DNA of 64,000 nucleotides from Deltaproteobacteria bacterium (GTDB taxonomy: Bacteria > Desulfobacterota > GWC2-55-46 > UBA9637): assembly GCA_016214995.1 (NCBI GenBank), contig JACRML010000031.1:6453-70452 (forward strand), read 5' to 3'. The number at the start of each line of letters is the position of its first letter. Within the stretch, counting starts at the first letter, position 1. Shown here in pieces: positions 12,385-57,522 of the stretch. The position numbers were made by a program, and so were the translations under genes. The notes under the pieces were generated by a model. It was not told the origin of the DNA. It saw only the letters and a list, made by a program, of their open reading frames with translations, and ran no database searches.

Positions 12385-14904
12385 TTAACCCGCCTTGCGA
12401 ATTTTTGCTTTTCCGCTTTTTACTTTTCCCTTTGCGCTTGCAGTTTTGGATTTTTTCTTTTCCTCGTTCAATCCAGCCATGGAAAGACATTCATCCAGCG
12501 TAAGCTCCTGCGGCTGTTTATCTGCGGGGATGCGGAAAAATCTTTTTCCGGCCTGAATGCACGGGCCGTATCTGCCGTTTACCACGCGCACGCTTGTATT
12601 CTCGTCCCATGCCTTGATGATTTTCTCCTGCTCTTTTTTCTCCTTCACAGTTACCAATTCAATGGCACGTTCCAGAGTTACACTGAGCGGATCTTCCCCT
12701 TTGCTCAAGGATGCAAAAATATTTTTATATTTCACATAAGGGCCGAATCTCCCTTTTGCCACACTGACATCTTCATTCTGAAACTTGCCTAACACTTTCG
12801 GCAGGCGGGGGCCGTTTAAAATTTCCTTGACCCTTTCCAGAGAAATCGTGTAAGGGTCTTCGCCTTTGGGAAGCGACACAAATGCATCTCTATATTTTAT
12901 ATACGGACCAAAACGTCCTATGCTCACAATCACCTCATTGCCTTCATGTGTTCCGAGATTGCGTGGCAGTTTGAAAAGTTCCATTGCCTGTTCAAAGGTG
13001 ATGTTATCCACACGCTGGTCTTTGCGAAGCGAAGCATAACGTGGTTTCTCATCGTCATCCTGATGTCCTATTTGAACCATAGGTCCAAACCTTCCGAGCC
13101 TTACGATTACTTGTTTCCCTGTCTTCGGGTCTTTGCCGAGCAGGCGCTCGCCGCTTTGGCGCTCTGATGTTTCGGCAGTATGCTTCACTATTTCATGAAA
13201 GGGTTTATAAAACGCCGCAAGCATCTTCGTCCACACCAATTTTCCTCCGGCAATTTCGTCAAACTCCTCTTCCACCTTTGCCGTGAAATTGAAATCCATA
13301 ATGTCTTTGAAATTATTCATAAGAAAATCATTTACCACCATGCCGATGTCCGTGGGAAAGAGTTTTGCCTTCTCTGCTCCGGTGTTTTCCGATTTAATTT
13401 CTTCTGTGATTTGCTTATTCTTCAAAGTGAAACAACTGAAATTTCGCTTCATCCCTTCGCGGTCTTCCTTAACCACATAATTTCTTTTTTGAATGGTAGA
13501 GATTGTGGGAGCATAGGTTGAAGGCCTTCCAATACCTAGTTCCTCCAGCTTGCGCACGAGTGTAGCTTCGGTATATCTGGGCGGGTGATGCGTGAAACGT
13601 TCTGTAGCAGTTATTTCTTTACCGGTGAGTTTCTCGCCGATTTTCAAAGGAGGAAGAATGCCTTCTGTGTTTTCCTCATCTTCGTCGTCTCTTCCTTCCA
13701 GATAAACTTTCAAAAACCCCTCGAACTTCAGAACTTCTCCCTGCGCAACAAAACTTTCTTCAGCCGTTGATACGCAGATTGTTGCTGTAGTCTTCTCCAG
13801 CAGGGCATCACTCATCTGCGAAGCAATCGTCCTTTTCCAAATCAGATCATAAATGCGGAGTTCCTGCGCATTGCCTTCAATTGAAGAGGCGCCGAGATCT
13901 GTAGGACGAATGGCTTCGTGCGCTTCCTGCGCTCCCTTGCTCTTTGTTTTGTAACGACGGATATTGATAAAGCCTTTTCCGTATAATTTTTCAATCTCCT
14001 TCTTCGCCTGGGCAAGCGCGGTGTCTGAAAGATTTACCGAATCCGTGCGCATATAGGTTATTTTTCCGCTCTCATAAAGCCCTTGCGCAGTTCTCATGGT
14101 TTGAGCAACAGAGTATCCGAATTTTCTTCCTGCCTCCTGCTGAAGTGTAGAAGTGGTAAAAGGAGCGGATGGGGATTTCTTTGCGGGCTTTGTCTCTATG
14201 TTGGCGATGGAGAACTCCGCATTTTTGCATTTTTCGAGGAATGATTTCGCCTCTTCTTTGGTCTGGAACTTTTTCGGCAGTTCCGCTTTCACCACCTCGT
14301 TTTTCTGATTCAGAAAAACAGCCGACACTTTGTAAGATGAAACAGATTTGAAATCTTGTATTTCTCTTTCCCGCTCCACAATCAATCTTACGGCAACGCT
14401 CTGCACCCTTCCTGCAGAGAGGGCGGGTTTCACTTTTTTCCAAAGGATTGGAGAAATCTCGTAGCCGACCAGCCTGTCCAAAACCCTGCGCGCCTGCTGA
14501 GCGTCAACCAAATTTTTATCAATTGTTCTAGGATTTTCAATTGCCTTTTGAATAGCCTCTTTGGTAATTTCAGAGTAGCTTATCCGTTTTGTTTTCTCCG
14601 GCTTCAAGTCCAGCGCTTCCGACAAATGCCATGCGATGGCCTCACCTTCGCGGTCTTCATCTGTTGCGAGCCACACCGTATCCGCACCCTTGGAAAGTTT
14701 TTTTAATTCGGCAACCACAGCTTTTTTATCGGGCGAAATTTCATACACTGGCTCAAAATTATTTTCTACATCTACCCCTATCCCTTTCTCAACCAAGTCG
14801 CGGATATGGCCGATGGAAGACTTCACTGTGAAATCCTTGCCGAGAAACTTGTTTATGGTCTTTGCCTTTGCAGGAGACTCTACTATGACGAGTGATCTGG
14901 ACAT
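12385..14904 (-). CDS. topA: DNA topoisomerase I
   Basis: 839 aa. TOPRIM LVIVESPAKAKTI and active-site ITYMRTDS. C-terminal repeated GRFGPY modules. Confidence 0.95.
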   Translation of the reverse strand: MSRSLVIVESPAKAKTINKFLGKDFTVKSSIGHIRDLVEKGIGVDVENNFEPVYEISPDKKAVVAELKKLSKGADTVWLATDEDREGEAIAWHLSEALDLKPEKTKRISYSEITKEAIQKAIENPRTIDKNLVDAQQARRVLDRLVGYEISPILWKKVKPALSAGRVQSVAVRLIVEREREIQDFKSVSSYKVSAVFLNQKNEVVKAELPKKFQTKEEAKSFLEKCKNAEFSIANIETKPAKKSPSAPFTTSTLQQEAGRKFGYSVAQTMRTAQGLYESGKITYMRTDSVNLSDTALAQAKKEIEKLYGKGFINIRRYKTKSKGAQEAHEAIRPTDLGASSIEGNAQELRIYDLIWKRTIASQMSDALLEKTTATICVSTAEESFVAQGEVLKFEGFLKVYLEGRDDEDEENTEGILPPLKIGEKLTGKEITATERFTHHPPRYTEATLVRKLEELGIGRPSTYAPTISTIQKRNYVVKEDREGMKRNFSCFTLKNKQITEEIKSENTGAEKAKLFPTDIGMVVNDFLMNNFKDIMDFNFTAKVEEEFDEIAGGKLVWTKMLAAFYKPFHEIVKHTAETSERQSGERLLGKDPKTGKQVIVRLGRFGPMVQIGHQDDDEKPRYASLRKDQRVDNITFEQAMELFKLPRNLGTHEGNEVIVSIGRFGPYIKYRDAFVSLPKGEDPYTISLERVKEILNGPRLPKVLGKFQNEDVSVAKGRFGPYVKYKNIFASLSKGEDPLSVTLERAIELVTVKEKKEQEKIIKAWDENTSVRVVNGRYGPCIQAGKRFFRIPADKQPQELTLDECLSMAGLNEEKKKSKTASAKGKVKSGKAKIRKAG

Positions 14905-22670: not shown

Positions 22671-22987
22671 ACTGTAATACAAGAGTGGCAGATATTGTAG
22701 AATTTATATCTATTATTTCATGGTAGCATTATTTTATGAGTGATAGACAGAATTGTAGGATGGACTATGCCCACCATCTCTGGCTTCGGTTGGCGCAATC
22801 CATCCTACGGCTATGACAAATAAGGGATAGCCCCCCCCTTCTTCACACCGGCACCATTTTAGTACTCATTGAAGAAATTGTCGAATTCGATTTCAACAGC
22901 ACTATGGTGCCGACCCCCGGTCTGCGTTACCGCTGAAAAATAATCCAGCCTGCCAAACCTACTGTTGTAATAATATCAAACAATCTC

Positions 22988-23829: not shown

Positions 23830-24074
23830 GTGAGCCATTCTACAGTCCATTCGTTAGGACGCTGTTCAAGAAGATATCTCATGCCCCGGAATTTGAAAAA
23901 GACATGAAGAGGCTTAAGCGATTCTCATCGATAGAAGAGGATTTGCGGTGGAAGGGGATAGATTCAGCAGGGATGGGGAAGGGTAAAGGGGTTGGGGTTG
24001 CGAGGGGGAGGGGAATAGATCAGGCTCGTATTTTCTGTTTTAGCTATAGAATAAGTTGGTACTTTGATATATAG
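23826..24074 (+). pseudogene. Truncated RelE/ParE-like toxin, 3' part replaced by repeat R3a
   Basis: ATGA overlap with the upstream antitoxin. The first 37 or so codons (..FEKDMKRLKRFSSIEEDL) resemble RelE/ParE N-termini. From about 23953 the frame reads through G-rich repeat sequence (GMGKGKGVGVARGRG). Confidence 0.5.
23953..24014 (+). repeat. G-rich post-toxin repeat R3, partial copy R3a
   Basis: Matches the 3' half of R3b and R3c: cagcaggga.ggggaagggtaaaggggttg.ggttgcgaggg. Confidence 0.8.
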
Positions 24075-24080
24075 TGAAAG

Positions 24081-24161
24081 CAATAAATAACTTGTAGGGC
24101 AAGCCTTCAGGCTTGCTTATTTGCAGGGCTAAAGCCCTGCCCTACACCAAGTTATTTATTG
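24081..24161. other. 81-nt three-way-junction palindrome
   Basis: Perfect 14-bp outer stem caataaataacttg/caagttatttattg. 6-bp tagggc/gcccta stem. Two inner hairpins, aagcc..ggctt and cagggc..gccctg. Confidence 0.7.
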
Positions 24162-24209
24162 CCGTTAGTATAGAATAGAGAAAAAATTAATAATGTAGGG
24201 GGGATTTAT

Positions 24210-24395
24210 ATGAGAACCGCGGCACAAAAAGTTAATCCAGAGGATTTTATCCTTTCTGCCCTTTCTCCAGAGGATCGGCTCGATGCGGCATTTGAGGTCG
24301 CTCGTGAGGCGTTCAAAAAGACACGCTTGACAATGAAAGATATTGACAATGCGGTTAAATCGGTAAGGAGAAAGGCTTACGAAAAGAAGAAATAA
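24210..24395 (+). CDS. Small putative antitoxin of the downstream PIN toxin
   Basis: 61 aa. No family firmly recognised. Position and size fit a type II antitoxin. Confidence 0.5.
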   Translation: MRTAAQKVNPEDFILSALSPEDRLDAAFEVAREAFKKTRLTMKDIDNAVKSVRRKAYEKKK

Positions 24396-24414
24396 AGTAG
24401 TCATAGACACAAGC

Positions 24415-24801
24415 GTGCTTATTTCTGCCTACGCCTTTGGTGGAACACCGGAGAAGGCTGTAAAGAAGGCGTTCTCAGAGGCAGACATATATTTAACCCC
24501 CGACCTTTTAAAGGAATACCGTGATGTCCCTTTGGCGCTTGAGGCAGAGGGAAAGATTAACCACCTGCAATTTAAGACCTTGATTTCAGGGATGGCAGCC
24601 GTTGTATCAAGAGCCGAGATTGTAAATCCAAAAAGAAAAATCCTGATATGTAGAGACCCGAAGGACGATATGTTGCTTGACTGTTGCATTGAAGCAAAGG
24701 CAGATTTTCTTGTCACAGGCGATGCTGACCTTCTTAATATCGCAGAATTGCCGTTTAATTTAAGGATAGTAACTCCACTCAAATTTCTCGAAGAAGGGTA
24801 G
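24415..24801 (+). CDS. PIN-family toxin (PIN_3/TIGR00305-like)
   Basis: DPKDDMLLDCCIEAKADFLVTGDADLL is the typical C-terminal PIN_3 motif. The conserved VVIDTSV segment is encoded in frame upstream of the first canonical start (GTG 24415). Confidence 0.75.
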   Translation: MLISAYAFGGTPEKAVKKAFSEADIYLTPDLLKEYRDVPLALEAEGKINHLQFKTLISGMAAVVSRAEIVNPKRKILICRDPKDDMLLDCCIEAKADFLVTGDADLLNIAELPFNLRIVTPLKFLEEG

Positions 24802-24814
24802 TCTATTCCCACCG

Positions 24815-24948
24815 GATGTAAAAACGATGAATGAAGAGGGCAATCGTAGGGTGGGCATTGCCCACCGGATGAGGAAGATAGAAGGGCTGATGGAGAGGTT
24901 CAGCAGGGACGGTGAAGGGTAAAGGGGTTGTGATTGCAAGAGGTGGGG
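24815..24948 (+). repeat. G-rich post-toxin repeat R3b
   Basis: Roughly 85 percent identical by eye to R3c over about 135 bp. Contains the ggtgggcattgcccacc palindrome and a G-run tract. Starts about 13 nt after the PIN stop. Confidence 0.85.
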
Positions 24949-24996
24949 AAATAAATGAGTCCGCTTCTTCAAAAAAAAGCTAAGTGGAGGTATTTG

Positions 24997-25266
24997 ATGA
25001 AAATAGTAAGCGAACACATAGACAAGATTGTAGCAATCGGCAAGCGGTATGGCGCTACCCGTCTGATATTGTTCGGGGGAGTGGTCGCAAGATCGGAAAA
25101 TACAAGAGATATTGATATAGCATGCGATGGCATCCCAGGCTGGAAGCTTTATGAATTTGCAGCAAGACTTGAAGAGGAGCTGCATATTCCTCTCGATGTA
25201 ATGCCGCTCAGCCCTCCGAGTCGTTTTACAAAATACATTGAGATGAAAGGCAAGGCGCTCATATGA
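24997..25266 (+). CDS. Nucleotidyltransferase-domain antitoxin (MntA-like)
   Basis: LILFGGVVARSENTRDIDIA (GG..x..DxD NTase signature). GGAGG lies 6 nt upstream of ATG 24997. ATGA overlap with the HEPN gene. Confidence 0.75.
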   Translation: MKIVSEHIDKIVAIGKRYGATRLILFGGVVARSENTRDIDIACDGIPGWKLYEFAARLEEELHIPLDVMPLSPPSRFTKYIEMKGKALI

Positions 25267-25736
25267 ATCTGAAAGACCTTTGCGAGGAAATTGCCATTGA
25301 GATTGAGCTTCTCGAATCCGTCATCAAAGAAATATCTTCCCTGCGCAACGACTTAACGGAGCGTGAGCCAACTATCAGGGAAAAAACAGCCGCAGGCGCC
25401 TTTATGGCACAATTTTACGGAGGGATTGAAAACATTTTGAAACGGATCAGCTTGTTCCACTCTGTTCCAATGCCTTCCGGCGACAACTGGCACACAGATC
25501 TTTTCCGAAGATTTTGCCAACCATCTTACCAAACCCTGCCTCTATTATTTAAGGAACAACTGGCCTTAGACATGGCCGCATTTCGTAAATTCAGGCATGT
25601 TGTTTATCACGGCTACGGTTTTGAACTTGACTGGGACAGGATGAAAGAAGGGTTGGCAAGAATTGATGATGTATTTAACCGTTTTAAACAGAAACTTAAC
25701 GAATATCTAAATGGGTTAGAAAAACAGAATAAATAG
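25263..25736 (+). CDS. HEPN-domain toxin (HepT-like)
   Basis: 157 aa. Rx4-6H motif in FRKFRHVVYHGYG. Paired with the MNT gene. Confidence 0.7.
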   Translation: MNLKDLCEEIAIEIELLESVIKEISSLRNDLTEREPTIREKTAAGAFMAQFYGGIENILKRISLFHSVPMPSGDNWHTDLFRRFCQPSYQTLPLLFKEQLALDMAAFRKFRHVVYHGYGFELDWDRMKEGLARIDDVFNRFKQKLNEYLNGLEKQNK

Positions 25737-25748
25737 CCGATACCGTCA

Positions 25749-25890
25749 AATGCGGAAACGATGATGGAAGAGGGCAAAAAGTTGTAGGGTGGGCTATGCC
25801 CACAGGATGAGAGAGATAGAAGGGCTGAGGGGAGAGGTTCCGCAGGGACGGGGAAGGGTAAGGGGGTTGGGATTGCGAGGGTGGAGGGGG
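25749..25890 (+). repeat. G-rich post-toxin repeat R3c
   Basis: Homologous to R3b. Starts about 13 nt after the HEPN stop. G-runs ggggaagggtaagggggttgggattgcgagggtggaggggg. Confidence 0.85.
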
Positions 25891-26017
25891 ATTTTATAAT
25901 TTCATACATGGATAAACGAGGCGACTAATGCAAATTTGAAGGTGATTGAAAGACTGATAAAACACTCATCAAAGCAATGAGATAAAGGCTGCAATAGCTA
26001 TTGTTTTAATATAAAAT

Positions 26018-45970: not shown

Positions 45971-47212
45971 ATGGGGCAGAAGGCAAGAGGCAAGAGGCAA
46001 GAGGCAAGAGGTAAGACTATTTATCTTGCTTCTAACTTCTTGCTTCTAACTTCTTGCTTCTTGCTTCTTGCTATTCCTCTCGCTTTAGCAGCGGAACCCC
46101 CAAAAACCAAAACCGAGGTTGTAAAGAAAGAAAAGCAGCTGGAATCTCTTAAAAGGGAGATTGTAGAAAAAAAGAAAAGTTTAGAATATAATGTAAGAAA
46201 AGAGAATAATATCCTTGAAGAATTGGAAAGGCTTGATAAAGCAAGATTTAAAAAAGAGGAAGAGTTGACAGATATAGAAGATAGCATTATTAAGCTAAAA
46301 CAAAAAACCAGCGCAGTGGACATACATATTGCAACGTTGGTGCGCGAGAGAGAAAGGCTGGCAGGGTTTTTGAACCAGCGATTGGTTGCTATGTATAAGA
46401 TGAAGAAAGGCGGCGTAATACAGCCGCTCTTTTCCTCCAACTCTGTTAATGATTTTGGCAGAAGATATAAGTATATAAACAAGATAGTAGAGTATGACGT
46501 TGACCTGTTAAAGGATTACAAAGAGAATCAACTGCTTTTAGAAGCAGAAAAGGAGAGGCTTAAGGCATTTCAGGAAGAGGCATTTTCCTTAAAGGATGAG
46601 GTTGAACACAAAAAAGGAGAGATAGAAGAGGAAAAGGATAAAAAGCAAGCTCTCTTGACAGCCATAAAGAAGAAAAAGAACATACAGCTTGCTACAATAC
46701 GGGAAATGGAGGACGCTTCTAAAGAACTCCAGTCTTTTTTAGACAAATTCAGAAAGGATATGGCGGAAAATACCGGAGGAAGCCATACTTTCGGTTTTGC
46801 AGCGATGCGGGGCAATCTGCCGATGCCGGTAGCAGGGAAGATTGTTTCCCTGTATGGGAAAGTGGAGCATCCGAAATTTCGCACTGTTACTTTTAATAAT
46901 GGTATTGAAATAGCCGCAAATATGGGGGGGGAGGTTAGGTCTGTGTACAAGGGGAGGGTGGCGTATTCAGGATGGTTCAGAGGTTATGGAAAGGTTATGA
47001 TTGTAGACCATGGTGACGGCTATTTTACCCTGTTTGCCCGTCTTTCAAAAATTATTAAAGATCTGGATTCCATTGTAGAAAAAGGCGATATAGTTGCCCT
47101 TGTAGGGGATACAGGCTCCATAAAAGGTCCGCACTTATATTTTGAAGTAAGACAGAAGGGAGTACCGTTGGACCCGTTAAATTGGTTGGCTTATACAGAA
47201 AGAAAAAAGTAG
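45971..47212 (+). CDS. M23 peptidase-domain murein hydrolase activator (EnvC-like)
   Basis: Signal peptide, long coiled coil, and C-terminal M23 domain (DHGDGYFTLFARL, GPHLYFEVRQKGVPLDP). Confidence 0.85.
   Translation: MGQKARGKRQEARGKTIYLASNFLLLTSCFLLLAIPLALAAEPPKTKTEVVKKEKQLESLKREIVEKKKSLEYNVRKENNILEELERLDKARFKKEEELTDIEDSIIKLKQKTSAVDIHIATLVRERERLAGFLNQRLVAMYKMKKGGVIQPLFSSNSVNDFGRRYKYINKIVEYDVDLLKDYKENQLLLEAEKERLKAFQEEAFSLKDEVEHKKGEIEEEKDKKQALLTAIKKKKNIQLATIREMEDASKELQSFLDKFRKDMAENTGGSHTFGFAAMRGNLPMPVAGKIVSLYGKVEHPKFRTVTFNNGIEIAANMGGEVRSVYKGRVAYSGWFRGYGKVMIVDHGDGYFTLFARLSKIIKDLDSIVEKGDIVALVGDTGSIKGPHLYFEVRQKGVPLDPLNWLAYTERKK
45976..46071. repeat. Heptamer-array hairpin forming the EnvC-like signal-peptide codons
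   Basis: Arm gaaggca agaggca agaggca agaggca agaggta aga, loop ctattta, then arm tcttgcttctaacttcttgcttctaacttcttgcttcttgcttcttgc. Confidence 0.85.
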
Positions 47213-50743: not shown

Positions 50744-51568
50744 ATGACACAGGAATCAGAAGTCGGAAGTCAGAAGTCAGAAATTAGAAGTCAGAGGTTA
50801 GAAGCAAGAAGCAAGAAAAAATCTTGCATCTTGCACCTTGCATCTTGCATCTTACTGTTCACTGTCTTTTACAGCTGTGCCTCTGATGCAAGCCGAAAAG
50901 ACGATGCAGATATACATTATAAGATTGGCGTTGTTCATCTTAATGAAGGGAACATCCCTGAGGCTATGAAAGAGTTGACGACTGCTGTGGAGAAATATCA
51001 CAAAGAGGCCTCATTTCACAATGCGCTTGGCCTGGCATATTTTGCTAAAGGTATGCATGAAGATGCAGTAAAGCATATGAAAGAGGCTACAAGTATAAAC
51101 CCGAAGTTTTCTGATGCCCATACAAATCTTGCAGCTGTTTATCTTGAAAAAAAGGAGTGGGATTTAGCTGTAGCAGAAGCCAAGCTTGCTCTATCCGATA
51201 TTTTTTACACTACCCCGGAATTTGCTTATTTCAATATGGGACGCGCCTTTTATGAGAAGGCTGATTATGCAAAGGCAGAAGAAAGCTATAAAAAGGCAAT
51301 AGAGAGCAATCCAAAATATATTGTTGCCTACAACAATATGGGTCTTACCTATATGAAGATGAACAGAGATAAAGAGGCGGCAGATATGTTCAGGCTTGCG
51401 ATAAGGAATGCGCCAAATTATGTTGATGCCCATTACAGACTTGGTCTTGTTTTGATAAACCTGAAGGATAAGAAGGGGGCATTCAATGAATTTCAGGAGG
51501 TTATAAAACTTGCTCCTGACAGCGAGACGGCAAGGTCTGCCAAAAGTTACATAGACTTGTTAAAATAG
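50744..51568 (+). CDS. TPR-repeat lipoprotein (PilW/PilF-like, upstream of rodZ)
   Basis: AGGAG SD. N-terminus from the repeat hairpin ends in a possible lipobox VFYSC, followed by multiple TPRs. The conserved pilW-rodZ neighbourhood supports the call. Confidence 0.7.
   Translation: MTQESEVGSQKSEIRSQRLEARSKKKSCILHLASCILLFTVFYSCASDASRKDDADIHYKIGVVHLNEGNIPEAMKELTTAVEKYHKEASFHNALGLAYFAKGMHEDAVKHMKEATSINPKFSDAHTNLAAVYLEKKEWDLAVAEAKLALSDIFYTTPEFAYFNMGRAFYEKADYAKAEESYKKAIESNPKYIVAYNNMGLTYMKMNRDKEAADMFRLAIRNAPNYVDAHYRLGLVLINLKDKKGAFNEFQEVIKLAPDSETARSAKSYIDLLK
50756..50857. repeat. Heptamer-array hairpin forming the TPR lipoprotein signal-peptide codons
   Basis: tcagaag tcggaag tcagaag tcagaaa ttagaag tcagagg ttagaag caagaag caaga, loop aaaaa, then tcttgca tcttgca ccttgca tcttgca tcttactg. 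Confidence 0.85.
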
Positions 51569-55104: not shown

Positions 55105-57522
55105 TCATATCATCTCCTTTTTAATAAGCCTTTTCATCTTTTCAACCGCCTCAAGTGCATCCTTTGCATAACCGTTCGCGCCTATCCTGTCTGCAAATTC
55201 CTGGTTCACCACCGCGCCTCCAACCATGGTCAAAACAGATACACCATGCTCTTTAAGCTTTTTAATAACATTATCCATTTCCATAACAGTTGTTGTCATC
55301 AAAGCTGAAAGACCAACTGCATCTACTTTATTTTTTATTGCCTCTGCTATGATTTTACCGGCAGGGACATTTTTTCCCAAATCAATGACTTCAAAACCAT
55401 GATTTTCCAATAGTGTGGATACAATATTTTTTCCGATATCATGAATATCGCCTTCAACAGTTGCCATCAAAACCTTGCCCATGCTTTGCGCTTTTTCCCC
55501 TTTAAACTCTTTTTTCAACCTGTCAAACGCCTTTTTCATGGTATCGGCAGAGAGCATAACCTGCGGCAGAAAGTAAATATTTTTATTAAACAATCGTCCA
55601 ACTTCTTCAAGTCCAGGTATGAGTCCCGCATTGCTTATCTTCAATGGATCCCATCCATGCTTCAAAGCCTCTTCAACCAATGAAACAATCCCTTCCTCAT
55701 CGCCGTTGATAATCGCATTCTTCAGCTTTTCATCAATTGTTTTAGGTTCTTTTTTTTCTTCTGACTTCTGACTTCTGACTTCTGACTTCTGGCCGTATCT
55801 CCTGATATATCTCTCTGCTCTCAAGTCATGGCCTGTCAGCACAATTGCGGCATGATATGCATCCATCATCAGACTATTATGCGGATTTATAATAGCAGCG
55901 TCAAGACCCGCCTCAATTGCCATTGTTAGAAAATTTGCATTTATTGCCTCCCTGTTCGGAAGACCGAATGAGATGTTGCTTACCCCAAGTATCGTGGAGA
56001 CTCCGAGTTTTTCCTTGACCATCCTAATTGCCTTCAAAGTCTCCCGTGCGGATTTCTGGTCTGCGCTCACTGTCATTGCAAGACAATCTATCACAACATC
56101 GGATTTTGAAAGGCCACATTCTAAAGCCCGCTTTAAAATTATCTCCGCAACGCAAAACCTGCCTTCTGTGGTCGGCGGAATGCCTTTATCATCCAGCGTC
56201 AGGCCGAGCACAGCTGCTCCGTATTTTTTTGCAAGAGGAAGGATTGTGCTTAATTTCTTTTCCTCTCCGCTTACTGAGTTTATCAACACCTTCCCGTCAA
56301 CTGCCTTTAAACCTGTTTCTAAGGCTTCAAGGCTTGAGGAGTCAAGAACTATGGGAAGCGGGCAGTTTTCATTGACTGCAAATACAGCCATCTGCATTGA
56401 TGCGGGTTCGTCTATCCCAGGCACCCCGACATTTACATCTAATATATGAGCGCCTACATCAGCCTGAGATTTTGCCTCTTTGCGGATGATAGAGGTCTTT
56501 TTATCTTTAATTTCCTGCTGGAGAAGTTTTTTGCCAGTCGGATTTATTCTTTCGCCTACAATTACAGGCGGCTGGGCGCCGCCAAATGATATATATCCGC
56601 TGCGGCTCGCAAGCCTGGTTTGGTGGGCATAGCCCACCCTACGACCTCCTGACTTCTGACTTCTAACTTCTGACTTCATTGCCTTAATATGCTCAGGTGT
56701 TGTGCCGCAGCAGCCGCCGATTATCTTGACGCCTGCGTCCAAAAGTTTAGGTACATACTTTGCCATCTCGGAAGGGCTGGCGGGAAATATGGTTTTGCCG
56801 TCTTTGAGATACGGTATACCTGCATTGGGTTGGGCGATTAAAGGCAGGTTAGTAACCTTGCTCATCGCAATAATCGCCTTGTAGATTCCTTCTATGCCAA
56901 GACTGCAGTTTGCGCCAATAACATCAGCGCCAAGACCCTCTGCAACTACGGCAAACACCTCTGGCGGAGTGCCAAGAACAGTCCTCATGGTCTCATCAAA
57001 TGTCATGGTTGCCGCTACCGGCAGGCCAGATGCCTTTGCAGCAATGATTGCCGCCTTCATCTCCCTTATATCCATCATCGTCTCAATGATGATTAAATCC
57101 ACGCCGCCGTCTTTTAGCGCACCAACCTGCTCTGAAAATATATCCACTGCCTCATCAAATGACAGGTCACCCACAGGCTCCAAAAACCTGCCGGTTGGCC
57201 CGAGTCCGCCTGCAACAAATTTATCTTTACCGGCTGACTCTCTTGCGTTTTTCGCTGCATTGAGATTTATTTCATGGAGTTTGTTTTCAAAATTATATTC
57301 CTTTAGCTTGGTTCTATTGGCGCCAAATGTGCATGTTGTAACAACATCAGAACCCGCATTTATATATCCTTTGTGAACTGTCTTTATCATCTCAGGATTT
57401 GTGATATTAAGCTCATCAGGGCAGCCGCCTGGCTTCAATCCAAGCCTCTGAAGCATTGTGCCGGTAGCGCCGTCAAAGAGGATGGGACGTTCATTTAATA
57501 TTTTTAAAAATTTGCTTTGCAT
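55105..57522 (-). CDS. metH: Methionine synthase (Hcy-MT, pterin-binding and B12-binding domains; no C-terminal activation domain)
   Basis: 805 aa. GGCCGTTPEHI, GERINPTG, and the DxHxxG B12 motif GDIHDIGKNIV. Two in-frame repeat inserts. Confidence 0.92.
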   Translation of the reverse strand: MQSKFLKILNERPILFDGATGTMLQRLGLKPGGCPDELNITNPEMIKTVHKGYINAGSDVVTTCTFGANRTKLKEYNFENKLHEINLNAAKNARESAGKDKFVAGGLGPTGRFLEPVGDLSFDEAVDIFSEQVGALKDGGVDLIIIETMMDIREMKAAIIAAKASGLPVAATMTFDETMRTVLGTPPEVFAVVAEGLGADVIGANCSLGIEGIYKAIIAMSKVTNLPLIAQPNAGIPYLKDGKTIFPASPSEMAKYVPKLLDAGVKIIGGCCGTTPEHIKAMKSEVRSQKSGGRRVGYAHQTRLASRSGYISFGGAQPPVIVGERINPTGKKLLQQEIKDKKTSIIRKEAKSQADVGAHILDVNVGVPGIDEPASMQMAVFAVNENCPLPIVLDSSSLEALETGLKAVDGKVLINSVSGEEKKLSTILPLAKKYGAAVLGLTLDDKGIPPTTEGRFCVAEIILKRALECGLSKSDVVIDCLAMTVSADQKSARETLKAIRMVKEKLGVSTILGVSNISFGLPNREAINANFLTMAIEAGLDAAIINPHNSLMMDAYHAAIVLTGHDLRAERYIRRYGQKSEVRSQKSEEKKEPKTIDEKLKNAIINGDEEGIVSLVEEALKHGWDPLKISNAGLIPGLEEVGRLFNKNIYFLPQVMLSADTMKKAFDRLKKEFKGEKAQSMGKVLMATVEGDIHDIGKNIVSTLLENHGFEVIDLGKNVPAGKIIAEAIKNKVDAVGLSALMTTTVMEMDNVIKKLKEHGVSVLTMVGGAVVNQEFADRIGANGYAKDALEAVEKMKRLIKKEMI
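55758..55790. repeat. In-frame ttctgac heptamer array inside metH
   Basis: cttctgac followed by ttctgac repeats. Translated as QKSEVRSQKSE in the linker before the B12 cap domain. Confidence 0.9.
56600..56680. repeat. In-frame mosaic repeat inside metH (palindrome module plus heptamer array)
   Basis: ggtgggcatagcccaccctac plus ctgacttctgacttctaacttctgac. Translated as SEVRSQKSGGRRVGYAHQTRLA. Confidence 0.85.

Follow-up and report, generated by a model that had tools for sequence, protein, structure and literature searches.

Tandem heptamers and a GTAG-type palindrome encode the interdomain linkers of a short methionine synthase

Both interdomain hinges of the only methionine synthase detected in the genome of an uncultured deltaproteobacterium from groundwater (Deltaproteobacteria bacterium, assembly GCA_016214995.1) are encoded by 7-base tandem repeats, and one of the two has a repetitive extragenic palindromic (REP) element attached to it. 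The gene, metH, lies at 55105..57522 on the minus strand of the stretch analyzed here, 64,000 nucleotides of contig JACRML010000031.1 that we call the window, and its single open reading frame (ORF), its Pfam domains and its match in the PDB identify the product as a short cobalamin-dependent methionine synthase of 805 aa. The explanation that we consider probable is that translated repeat DNA replaced linkers of the same length, that the arrays at these sites are orthologous and have been homogenized and recombined, and that a REP was added at the edge of the linker-1 array. An earlier sequence-only reading of the window had described the two segments as repeat modules inserted in frame into interdomain linkers. 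The ORF and its translations confirm that both are repeat DNA within one open frame in which the reading frame is kept, and the Pfam boundaries confirm that they are located in two interdomain linkers.

The short MetH and the anatomy of its linkers

The domains of the window MetH follow the order S-methyl_trans (residues 15-285), Pterin_bind (323-546), B12-binding_2 (598-670) and B12-binding (682-793). Linker 1, or linker I, joins the homocysteine (Hcy) and folate (Fol) domains and sits between S-methyl_trans and Pterin_bind; linker 2, or linker II, is the Fol:Cap hinge between Pterin_bind and B12-binding_2. The Hcy, pterin, B12-cap and B12 domains stand in this order together with the catalytic residues, and, as in other short forms of MetH, the AdoMet activation domain is absent from the protein. 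The top PDB matches are the MetH proteins of Thermus and Thermotoga (8SSC, E=1.9e-128), and in an alignment of MetH homologues (A1) the zinc-ligand cysteines Cys206, Cys271 and Cys272 and the motif D692-x-H694-x-x-G697 are invariant. The activation domain, PF02965, was not found in the 82.5%-complete source genome (G000), nor were MetE (PF01717) and a second MetH-type domain detected in it. Across homologues whose identity ranges from 89% to 64%, protein length stays at ~800-815 aa, and neither array interrupts the metH frame in any of 13 orthologues. Given that the catalytic residues are intact, that the 13 frames are open and that MetE was not found, conservation indicates that metH is very likely functional.

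The linker-2 array occupies 55758..55791 on the minus strand, where Tandem Repeats Finder (TRF) reports a period of 7, 4.9 copies, a 100% match and the consensus CTTCTGA. On the sense strand it reads (CAGAAGT/GAAGTCA) x4.9 and encodes residues 578-589, QKSEVRSQKSEE. The sequence-only reading had recognized the heptamers behind the peptide QKSEVRSQKSE and had put their number at four; the repeat is real and its count is nearly five units. It had also explained the 7-aa periodicity correctly, as three 7-nt units make 21 nt and the peptide therefore recurs as the hydrophilic SEVRSQK. Only the GAAGTCA orientation is readable, because the antisense unit contains TGA. At its 3' boundary the array gives way to an A-rich tail of linker II (55740..55757, minus strand, sense gaagaaaaaaaagaacct) that encodes EKKEP and is kept in relatives as xKEEP.

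Linker 1 is a composite. Its array (56649..56677, minus strand; TRF period 7, 4.1 copies, 90% match, CTGACTT) consists of the sense units GAAGTCA, GAAGTTA, GAAGTCA and GAAGTCA followed by a G and encodes residues 282-292, MKSEVRSQKSG, the first units overlapping the last helix of the Hcy barrel. A 6-nt spacer with the sense sequence GAGGTC (56643..56648, minus strand), overlapped by the codons for G-G-R and resembling the junctions in ispA and cbiD, leads to a single GTAG-type REP in sense orientation at 56622..56642 on the minus strand. The element reads GTAG GGTGGGC TAT GCCCACC, or GGTGGGCATAGCCCACC(CTAC) on the window strand at 56622-56642; its palindrome, GTAGGGTGGGCTATGCCCACC, is translated as RRVGYAHQ (residues 294-301), and the composite peptide of residues 282-301 is MKSEVRSQKSG-GR-RRVGYAHQ. 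TAG is present in one of the three REP frames, and metH uses one of the two stop-free frames. In both linkers the arrays are head-to-tail 7-nt units in about four to five copies (4.9 and 4.1), and they are single arms without an inverted partner. These repeats are far more frequent in the window than chance would have them: the heptamer dimer CTTCTGACTTCTGA has 12 matches versus 0.02 expected, and the 17-mer core of the palindrome, at no more than 2 mismatches, has 5 matches versus 0 in 100 shuffles.

In an AlphaFold2 (AF2) model of MetH, the mean predicted local distance difference test score (pLDDT) is 79.9. As proposed from the sequence, we mapped the repeat-coded segments on this model, and low confidence shows in both linkers: pLDDT drops below 50 at residues 295-298, in the REP-coded segment, and at 578-592, a stretch that covers the linker-2 array. 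The model also contains a helix at 276-287, and the mean pLDDT of residues 281-290 is 81. In Thermus MetH, Linker I is described as rigid and Linker II is the hinge, whose helix-loop transition drives the movements of the catalytic domains and which is an unstructured loop in 8SSC (bioRxiv 10.1101/2024.08.29.610163). Since Linker II is the hinge in Thermus and the linker-2 array covers the segment with pLDDT below 50, the repeat-coded linker-2 segment would, by analogy, be the functional hinge of the window MetH.

Linker replacement and recombination among relatives

We compared the window gene (WIN) with metH loci and contigs of relatives, which carry L-numbers below, and with protein variants, which carry P-numbers. 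Repeats at both linkers are confined to a low-GC clade of groundwater 'Deltaproteobacteria' metagenome-assembled genomes (MAGs). Relatives of at least 70% identity have linker peptides that are 7-aa periodic but differ from one another (e.g., SEIKSQK, SGVRSQG, SKQQAVS and GQGSGVS), and four linker-1 alleles are found among proteins 91-98% identical to P0005. The linkers of distant GC-rich orthologues are non-repetitive and of nearly equal length. When compared at the DNA level, linker 1 measures 18-28 aa with repeats versus 20-23 aa without them, and linker 2 measures 17-20 aa with repeats versus 19-25 aa without them. The REP-bearing linker 1 has 22 aa versus 23 aa for the REP-free L001 allele. 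Linkers at metH vary in length by 1-3 codons, except that L005 and L007/L003 are 7 codons apart, and a rule of 21-nt steps only does not fit this spread.

Arrays are present at the metH linker sites of ten low-GC relatives, and anchoring on the conserved flanks puts most of them in one register, which is ATG-NN-(GTCANNN)x4 in linker 1 and NNNC-(ARNRRKY)x4 in linker 2. Linker 1 of L002, L005 and L026 is exceptional in drifting into 8-nt units; the linker-2 array of L003 is in register after one extra codon is allowed, and that of L001 is heterogeneous. Units are homogeneous within an array and different between genomes (GTCAGAA, GTCAAGG, GTCAAAA, GTCACAA, AGAGGTT, AGCAGTA, AAGGGGC and AGAAGGC). 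The start of linker 1, MGS-V-KG, is still alignable with MGSVFKG / MGDxFRG of the outgroup and is modeled as the end of the last Hcy-barrel helix.

Because the site is shared, the register mostly so, and the linker length is close to that of repeat-free orthologues, these comparisons argue that the metH arrays are old and orthologous and are not net insertions; the arrays appear to have overwritten linker content and to evolve in concert. The earlier description of the segments as inserted is thus only partly right: the repeats are indeed confined to the low-GC clade, but there was no net insertion, as the linkers of distant orthologues have about the same length. An alignment with orthologues had been proposed as a way of confirming lineage-specific insertions, and it yields repeats that are lineage-specific in arrays that are old, orthologous and present in ten relatives. 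Homologous residues in distant lineages had been named as the observation that would speak against insertion, and they are found in part: distant orthologues have residues at both sites, in linkers of about equal length, and the linker-1 start, MGS-V-KG, resembles MGSVFKG of the outgroup.

A different replacement is seen in L004:3001-5433 (also P0010 and P0015), where linker 2 is not a repeat and consists of a unique 29-aa segment, REAQTIRPPGIESGEAFGKPRVTIKEPHG. We considered and rejected an assembly artefact as the source of the repeat-coded linkers, since the same architecture occurs in more than 10 independent assemblies. We also rejected a frameshifted linker-1 allele, P0131, as a case of heptamer slip. 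This allele comes from a metH contig of at least 90% identity (L087:1720-1861) whose sequence departs precisely where linker 1 begins, runs into a stop and breaks off 18 nt after it; either the assembly broke at a hypervariable site, or the allele is rearranged or split.

In a metH tree built without the linker columns, WIN groups together with L001 and L007 (support 92/94), and L005, L006 and L028 fall just outside. The nearest relative of L007 changes every 100-300 nt in a sliding-window comparison. Three features are at odds with this tree. The linker-1 window of L007 shows 99% identity to L003, a sequence outside the group of WIN, L001 and L007. At linker 2, L007 matches L002 in 57/57 nt of the segment, and in 89% of the 120-nt window around it. 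The REP-bearing linker-1 allele is restricted to WIN and L005 (the latter also represented by P0004), two sequences that the tree does not join as sisters, and the REP is absent at the metH site in L001, L007, L006, L028 and others. Because the nearest relative of L007 switches at such short intervals, metH in this clade is a fine-scale recombination mosaic in which linker alleles travel between lineages. The mosaic (WIN versus L001-L007 and L028) is observed among species ~80-86% identical at the nucleotide level.

The REP family and the genome-wide heptamer arrays

The metH palindrome is a genuine GTAG-type REP. The source genome contains 39 GTAG-headed copies (GTAG + GGTGGGC-NNN-GCCCACC), a modest number relative to the >100 of classical REP-rich genomes, and at least 10 inverted doublets with spacers of 4-25 nt (e.g., C3:60048/60090, C96:17383/17426 and C98:10793/10837); the metH copy is a singleton. 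Of 26 relatives reaching up to class level, 19 have the family and 0 have a reversed control pattern. The genome has 13 Y1-transposase (Y1_Tnp) matches and, outside the window, a gene for a REP-associated tyrosine transposase (RAYT) at C64:11991-12533 on the minus strand (NF047646 REP_Tyr_transpos, 193.5 bits, cut-off 80). A REP doublet at C64 12600/12628 lies 67 nt upstream of this gene, and more copies lie at 12702 and 10295. The features by which GTAG REPs and their inverted doublets (REPINs) are recognized together with a RAYT are therefore all present, that is, the GTAG head with a GC-rich palindrome, multiple copies, inverted doublets and a flanked RAYT. The metH copy departs from them in its location, which is not extragenic but in frame at residues 294-301, a departure for which published exceptions exist (PMC3733652). 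One REP copy is found inside the RAYT's own ORF (…GLAGTAHPTKS…).

In-frame copies occur elsewhere in the source genome in cbiD, ispA (farnesyl pyrophosphate, FPP, synthase), ogt and purL. The purL element (C33:15693-15741, outside the window) is an inverted, REPIN-like doublet in frame (…VVVGRAAPANNRWAQPTLQ…) and splits the match to the PurL hidden Markov model (HMM) in two. Three of the 39 REPs, those of metH, cbiD and ispA, come immediately after GAAGTCA units, versus an expected fraction of 0.0017 (P=4e-5, motif-window test). Composites of a REP and an AGTCAG-type array are in frame in relatives too, namely in valS, in a GH57 amylase-like gene and at the orthologous ispA site (two other genomes); in one genome the GH57 REP has AGTCAGG units on both flanks, and the ispA copy is conserved across genera. 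Shared permissive sites alone explain this association poorly, because AGTCAG-type units (AAGTCAG 11 + AGGAGTC 7) make up only ~14% of ORF-internal arrays, and it is plausible that REP integration prefers AGTCAG-type arrays as targets. The sequence-only reading had spoken of several unrelated module types, a description that we do not uphold, as REPs adjoin AGTCAG-type arrays non-randomly and the modules are not independent.

That reading had also noticed that the metH palindrome is shared with intergenic repeats of the window, and this proved correct with the GTAG head included. On the plus strand, a copy at 24846..24866 (GTAGGGTGGGCATTGCCCACC) lies inside a tandem repeat of ~938 nt, a second at 25784..25804 (GTAGGGTGGGCTATGCCCACA) lies in the next copy of that repeat, and a degenerate REP at 22755..22775 (GTAGGATGGACTATGCCCACC) has an inverted GTAG-type partner ~30 nt downstream. 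At 23950-25900, a purine-rich segment ('R3') stands in three tandem copies ~938 nt apart, two of which carry the GTAG REP, as if a gene and its spacer had been triplicated in tandem.

The source genome (1.98 Mb, 42% GC) yields 860 period-7 TRF rows in 244 unit classes. These merge into 455 arrays, 131 of which (29%) are set 40 aa or more within long ORFs, with 119 others near ORF ends; the ORFs come from a greedy long-ORF caller and not from a gene finder, and the counts of internal arrays are approximate. These arrays thus differ from heptamer repeats that are predominantly intergenic and scarce in coding sequence. Whether they lie within ORFs or not, they have a median length of 30-31 nt; their lengths peak around 23-24 and 31-32 nt, and the most frequent copy number is 4. 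The commonest sense-strand unit inside ORFs is AAGTCAG (GAAGTCA), and SEVRSQK peptides occur in 10 ORFs.

Genomes differ in the units that they use. We find 32 matches to (GTCACAA)x3 in G031, the genome of L006, and 0 in 11 other genomes; (GTCAGAA)x3 has 40 matches in G000, 57 in G026 and 1 in G031, and (GTCAAGG)x3 has 29 in G033, 24 in G028, 20 in G034 and 3 in G000, counts that cover three patterns across 12 MAGs. The two metH linkers of G031, which lie 860 nt apart, both use GTCACAA. Where a protein of G031 contains a GTCACAA array, the same position in G000 is taken by an array of an unrelated unit or by a loop of the same length that is not a repeat. The stricter proposal that every GTCAGAA array of G000 is GTCACAA in G031 was rejected, as one site has an AAAGTCA-type array and another has no array. 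On this evidence array sites persist while the units in them turn over. Many GTCACAA copies of G031 (e.g., L074-L086) encode SQVTSHK peptides in N-terminal signal-peptide-like regions and are followed by an inverted arm. In the window, heptamer arrays followed by inverted arms at 50744-50890 and 45971-46080 seem to specify signal or lipoprotein peptides at protein N termini, and intergenic hairpins are built from heptamer units also found in metH.

Known systems and competing explanations

The closest precedent for the palindrome is the set of GTAG-tagged REPs of which some copies lie wholly within ORFs of known proteins, in what were suggested to be flexible linkers or loops (Di Nocera et al. 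2013, BMC Genomics 14:522, PMC3733652). The REPs described here share with that set the GTAG head and short GC-rich palindrome, the inverted dimers, the REP-flanked RAYT and the intragenic copies. The published intragenic copies are mainly in DNA-repair genes, whereas the hosts here are the metabolic enzymes encoded by metH, cbiD, ispA, purL and ogt, with valS and GH57 in relatives, and the present REPs also differ in their physical association with AGTCAG-type arrays and in having a copy, in ispA, that is conserved across genera. For Rickettsia palindromic elements (RPEs), the same paper, citing Ogata et al. (2000), mentions palindromic repeats in frame in functional genes, a behavior shared with the metH REP. 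An analogy to these elements had been drawn from the window sequence, and it is apt for the in-frame behavior but not for the element itself, which is a 21-nt GTAG-tagged REP with a cognate RAYT and has not lengthened its linker. RPEs are ~100-150 bp long and add a sizeable peptide segment.

For the heptamers, the account of Geobacter metallireducens (Aklujkar et al. 2009, PMC2700814) places multicopy heptanucleotide elements within genes and gives a class-3 consensus, MTYCTGA x5, that fits the metH CTTCTGA x4.9 in unit and copy number when consensus is compared with consensus. It describes a few fixed units, read as regulatory, and elements in inverted pairs, whereas we find ~244 unit classes, 131 ORF-internal arrays, orthologous arrays across species with unit turnover, and single arms at metH. 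A 7-nt tandem excess with ~four units and hairpin-capable inverted pairs is also known from the GGGAATC / GGGGAYT repeats of Xanthomonas and Nostoc and from the short tandemly repeated repetitive (STRR) sequences of heterocystous cyanobacteria (Rehm et al. 2015, PMC4692102). Those repeats are G-rich, are explained by G-quadruplex formation and are depleted from coding sequence, whereas GAAGTCA cannot form a G-quadruplex and 29% of the arrays here lie well inside ORFs. The CTTCTGA unit presumably matches none of the cyanobacterial STRR units. The use of junk-like repeats as protein linkers is not unprecedented, and metH is a clear example of it.

We favor the explanation that two genome-wide repeat classes encode both MetH linkers and would be tolerated there since the constraint seems to fall mainly on length and general character. 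Arrays of ~30 nt each would have arisen in the ancestor of the low-GC groundwater clade and overwritten an ordinary linker of about equal length. Their unit sequence would then have been homogenized repeatedly by concerted evolution, with the site kept throughout and the register kept in most relatives, and homologous recombination would shuffle whole linker alleles between lineages. The 21-nt GTAG REP, which could in principle be mobilized by the RAYT of the genome, would have settled where the linker-1 array ends on its 3' side, presumably by transposition, to which its presence or absence at the metH site among close relatives points indirectly. It may survive in metH since, of its two frames free of stop codons, one is in phase. 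The variants are probably filtered by selection that acts on both the length and the frame of the linkers.

Several points weigh against this explanation. We infer the translation and function of MetH from conservation only. Besides shared descent, selection that keeps residue 286 hydrophobic may account in part for the conserved register of linker 1, and by analogy with the rigid Linker I of Thermus MetH the REP-coded peptide in linker 1 may not be neutral. Passive tolerance leaves unexplained how homogenization keeps the length in a gene in which a slip of one unit is a frameshift. Neither does it explain genome-specific unit usage, such as that of GTCACAA in both metH linkers of G031, or the adjacency of REPs to AGTCAG-type arrays, which has the low P value given above and recurs in other genes of relatives.

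A dedicated copying process, template-switching or transposase-like, or the insertion of mini-elements into arrays, might instead write ~30-nt arrays with a proliferating unit at about constant length, in a manner other than local slippage, with the metH linkers as two of its targets. Such active rewriting would be in keeping with the array length, which is tightly distributed and equal inside and outside ORFs whatever the unit, with the genome-specific dialects, with the use of GTCACAA in both metH linkers of G031, with the unrelated units or same-length loops that G000 has opposite GTCACAA arrays of G031, and with the preference for ~four units among the unrelated heptamers of Xanthomonas and Nostoc (PMC4692102). 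However, the analysis turned up no candidate enzyme, some arrays show the heterogeneity that mutation and slippage would produce (linker 2 of L001), not all GTCAGAA sites of G000 are GTCACAA in G031, the dialect counts come from three patterns in 12 MAGs, and recombination between lineages can spread alleles without special machinery; we regard this process as rather unlikely. The same doubt attaches to its widest form, an active genome-wide rewriting of fixed array sites, including the catalytically important Fol:Cap hinge, at constant length and often in register, with GTAG REPs integrating preferentially at AGTCAG-type arrays.

Fresh, lineage-specific insertion of mobile modules in frame into shorter linkers, as for RPEs, holds for the REP, which belongs to a RAYT-associated family and is present at the metH site only in WIN and L005 (P0004), and the absence of repeats from GC-rich orthologues agrees with it. 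Yet linkers with repeats are essentially as long as those of repeat-free orthologues, arrays stand at the same site in 10 species and mostly in the same register, the linker-1 start can be aligned with the outgroup (MGS.V.KG), and the REP-bearing linker is no longer than the REP-free allele (22 versus 23 aa in L001). For the arrays, these comparisons appear to have largely refuted fresh insertion, and we consider it improbable as the overall explanation. It is more improbable still that the repeats are selected nucleic-acid elements that are translated incidentally, whether protein-binding sites, RNA structures or pause sites for co-translational folding. The same units form intergenic hairpins in the window, both metH elements lie exactly at domain boundaries, the REP is predicted to make a 7-bp GC hairpin with a 3-nt loop in the mRNA, and CTTCTGA x5 fits the MTYCTGA x5 that the Geobacter account (PMC2700814) proposes as sites of a global regulator. 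Against this, the metH arrays have no inverted partner and their units are not conserved between close relatives, the linker-1 region folds no better than shuffles (z=-0.49) with only the REP stem predicted, an Rfam search gave no family matches, and purifying selection alone equally predicts placement at domain boundaries. Finally, arrays that are perfect or near-perfect, with a unit length that is not a multiple of three, could make metH a phase-variable contingency locus whose frame shifts by heptamer gain or loss. We give this idea hardly any credence, as both arrays are read through in each of the 13 orthologous frames, each array has only 4-5 copies, linker lengths differ by whole codons, and metH is the only methionine synthase detected.

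The most interesting part of the metH case is the same-length, largely in-register homogenization with genome-specific dialects, which together with the REP-array association is apparently new, as it has not been described for heptamer simple sequence repeats or REPs in the literature searched. Active rewriting, if true, would amount to a mutational system not described before, one that keeps re-encoding the linkers, loops and signal peptides of proteins. MetH relies on large movements of its domains, and its hinge is here encoded wholly by simple-repeat DNA, which varies in sequence among close relatives at a length held to 17-20 aa. This natural experiment suggests that the constraint on the hinge concerns its length and general character and not its exact sequence. 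More broadly, repeats of two 'junk' classes seem domesticable as linker peptides in an essential enzyme, at sites that last for long periods while their content turns over.

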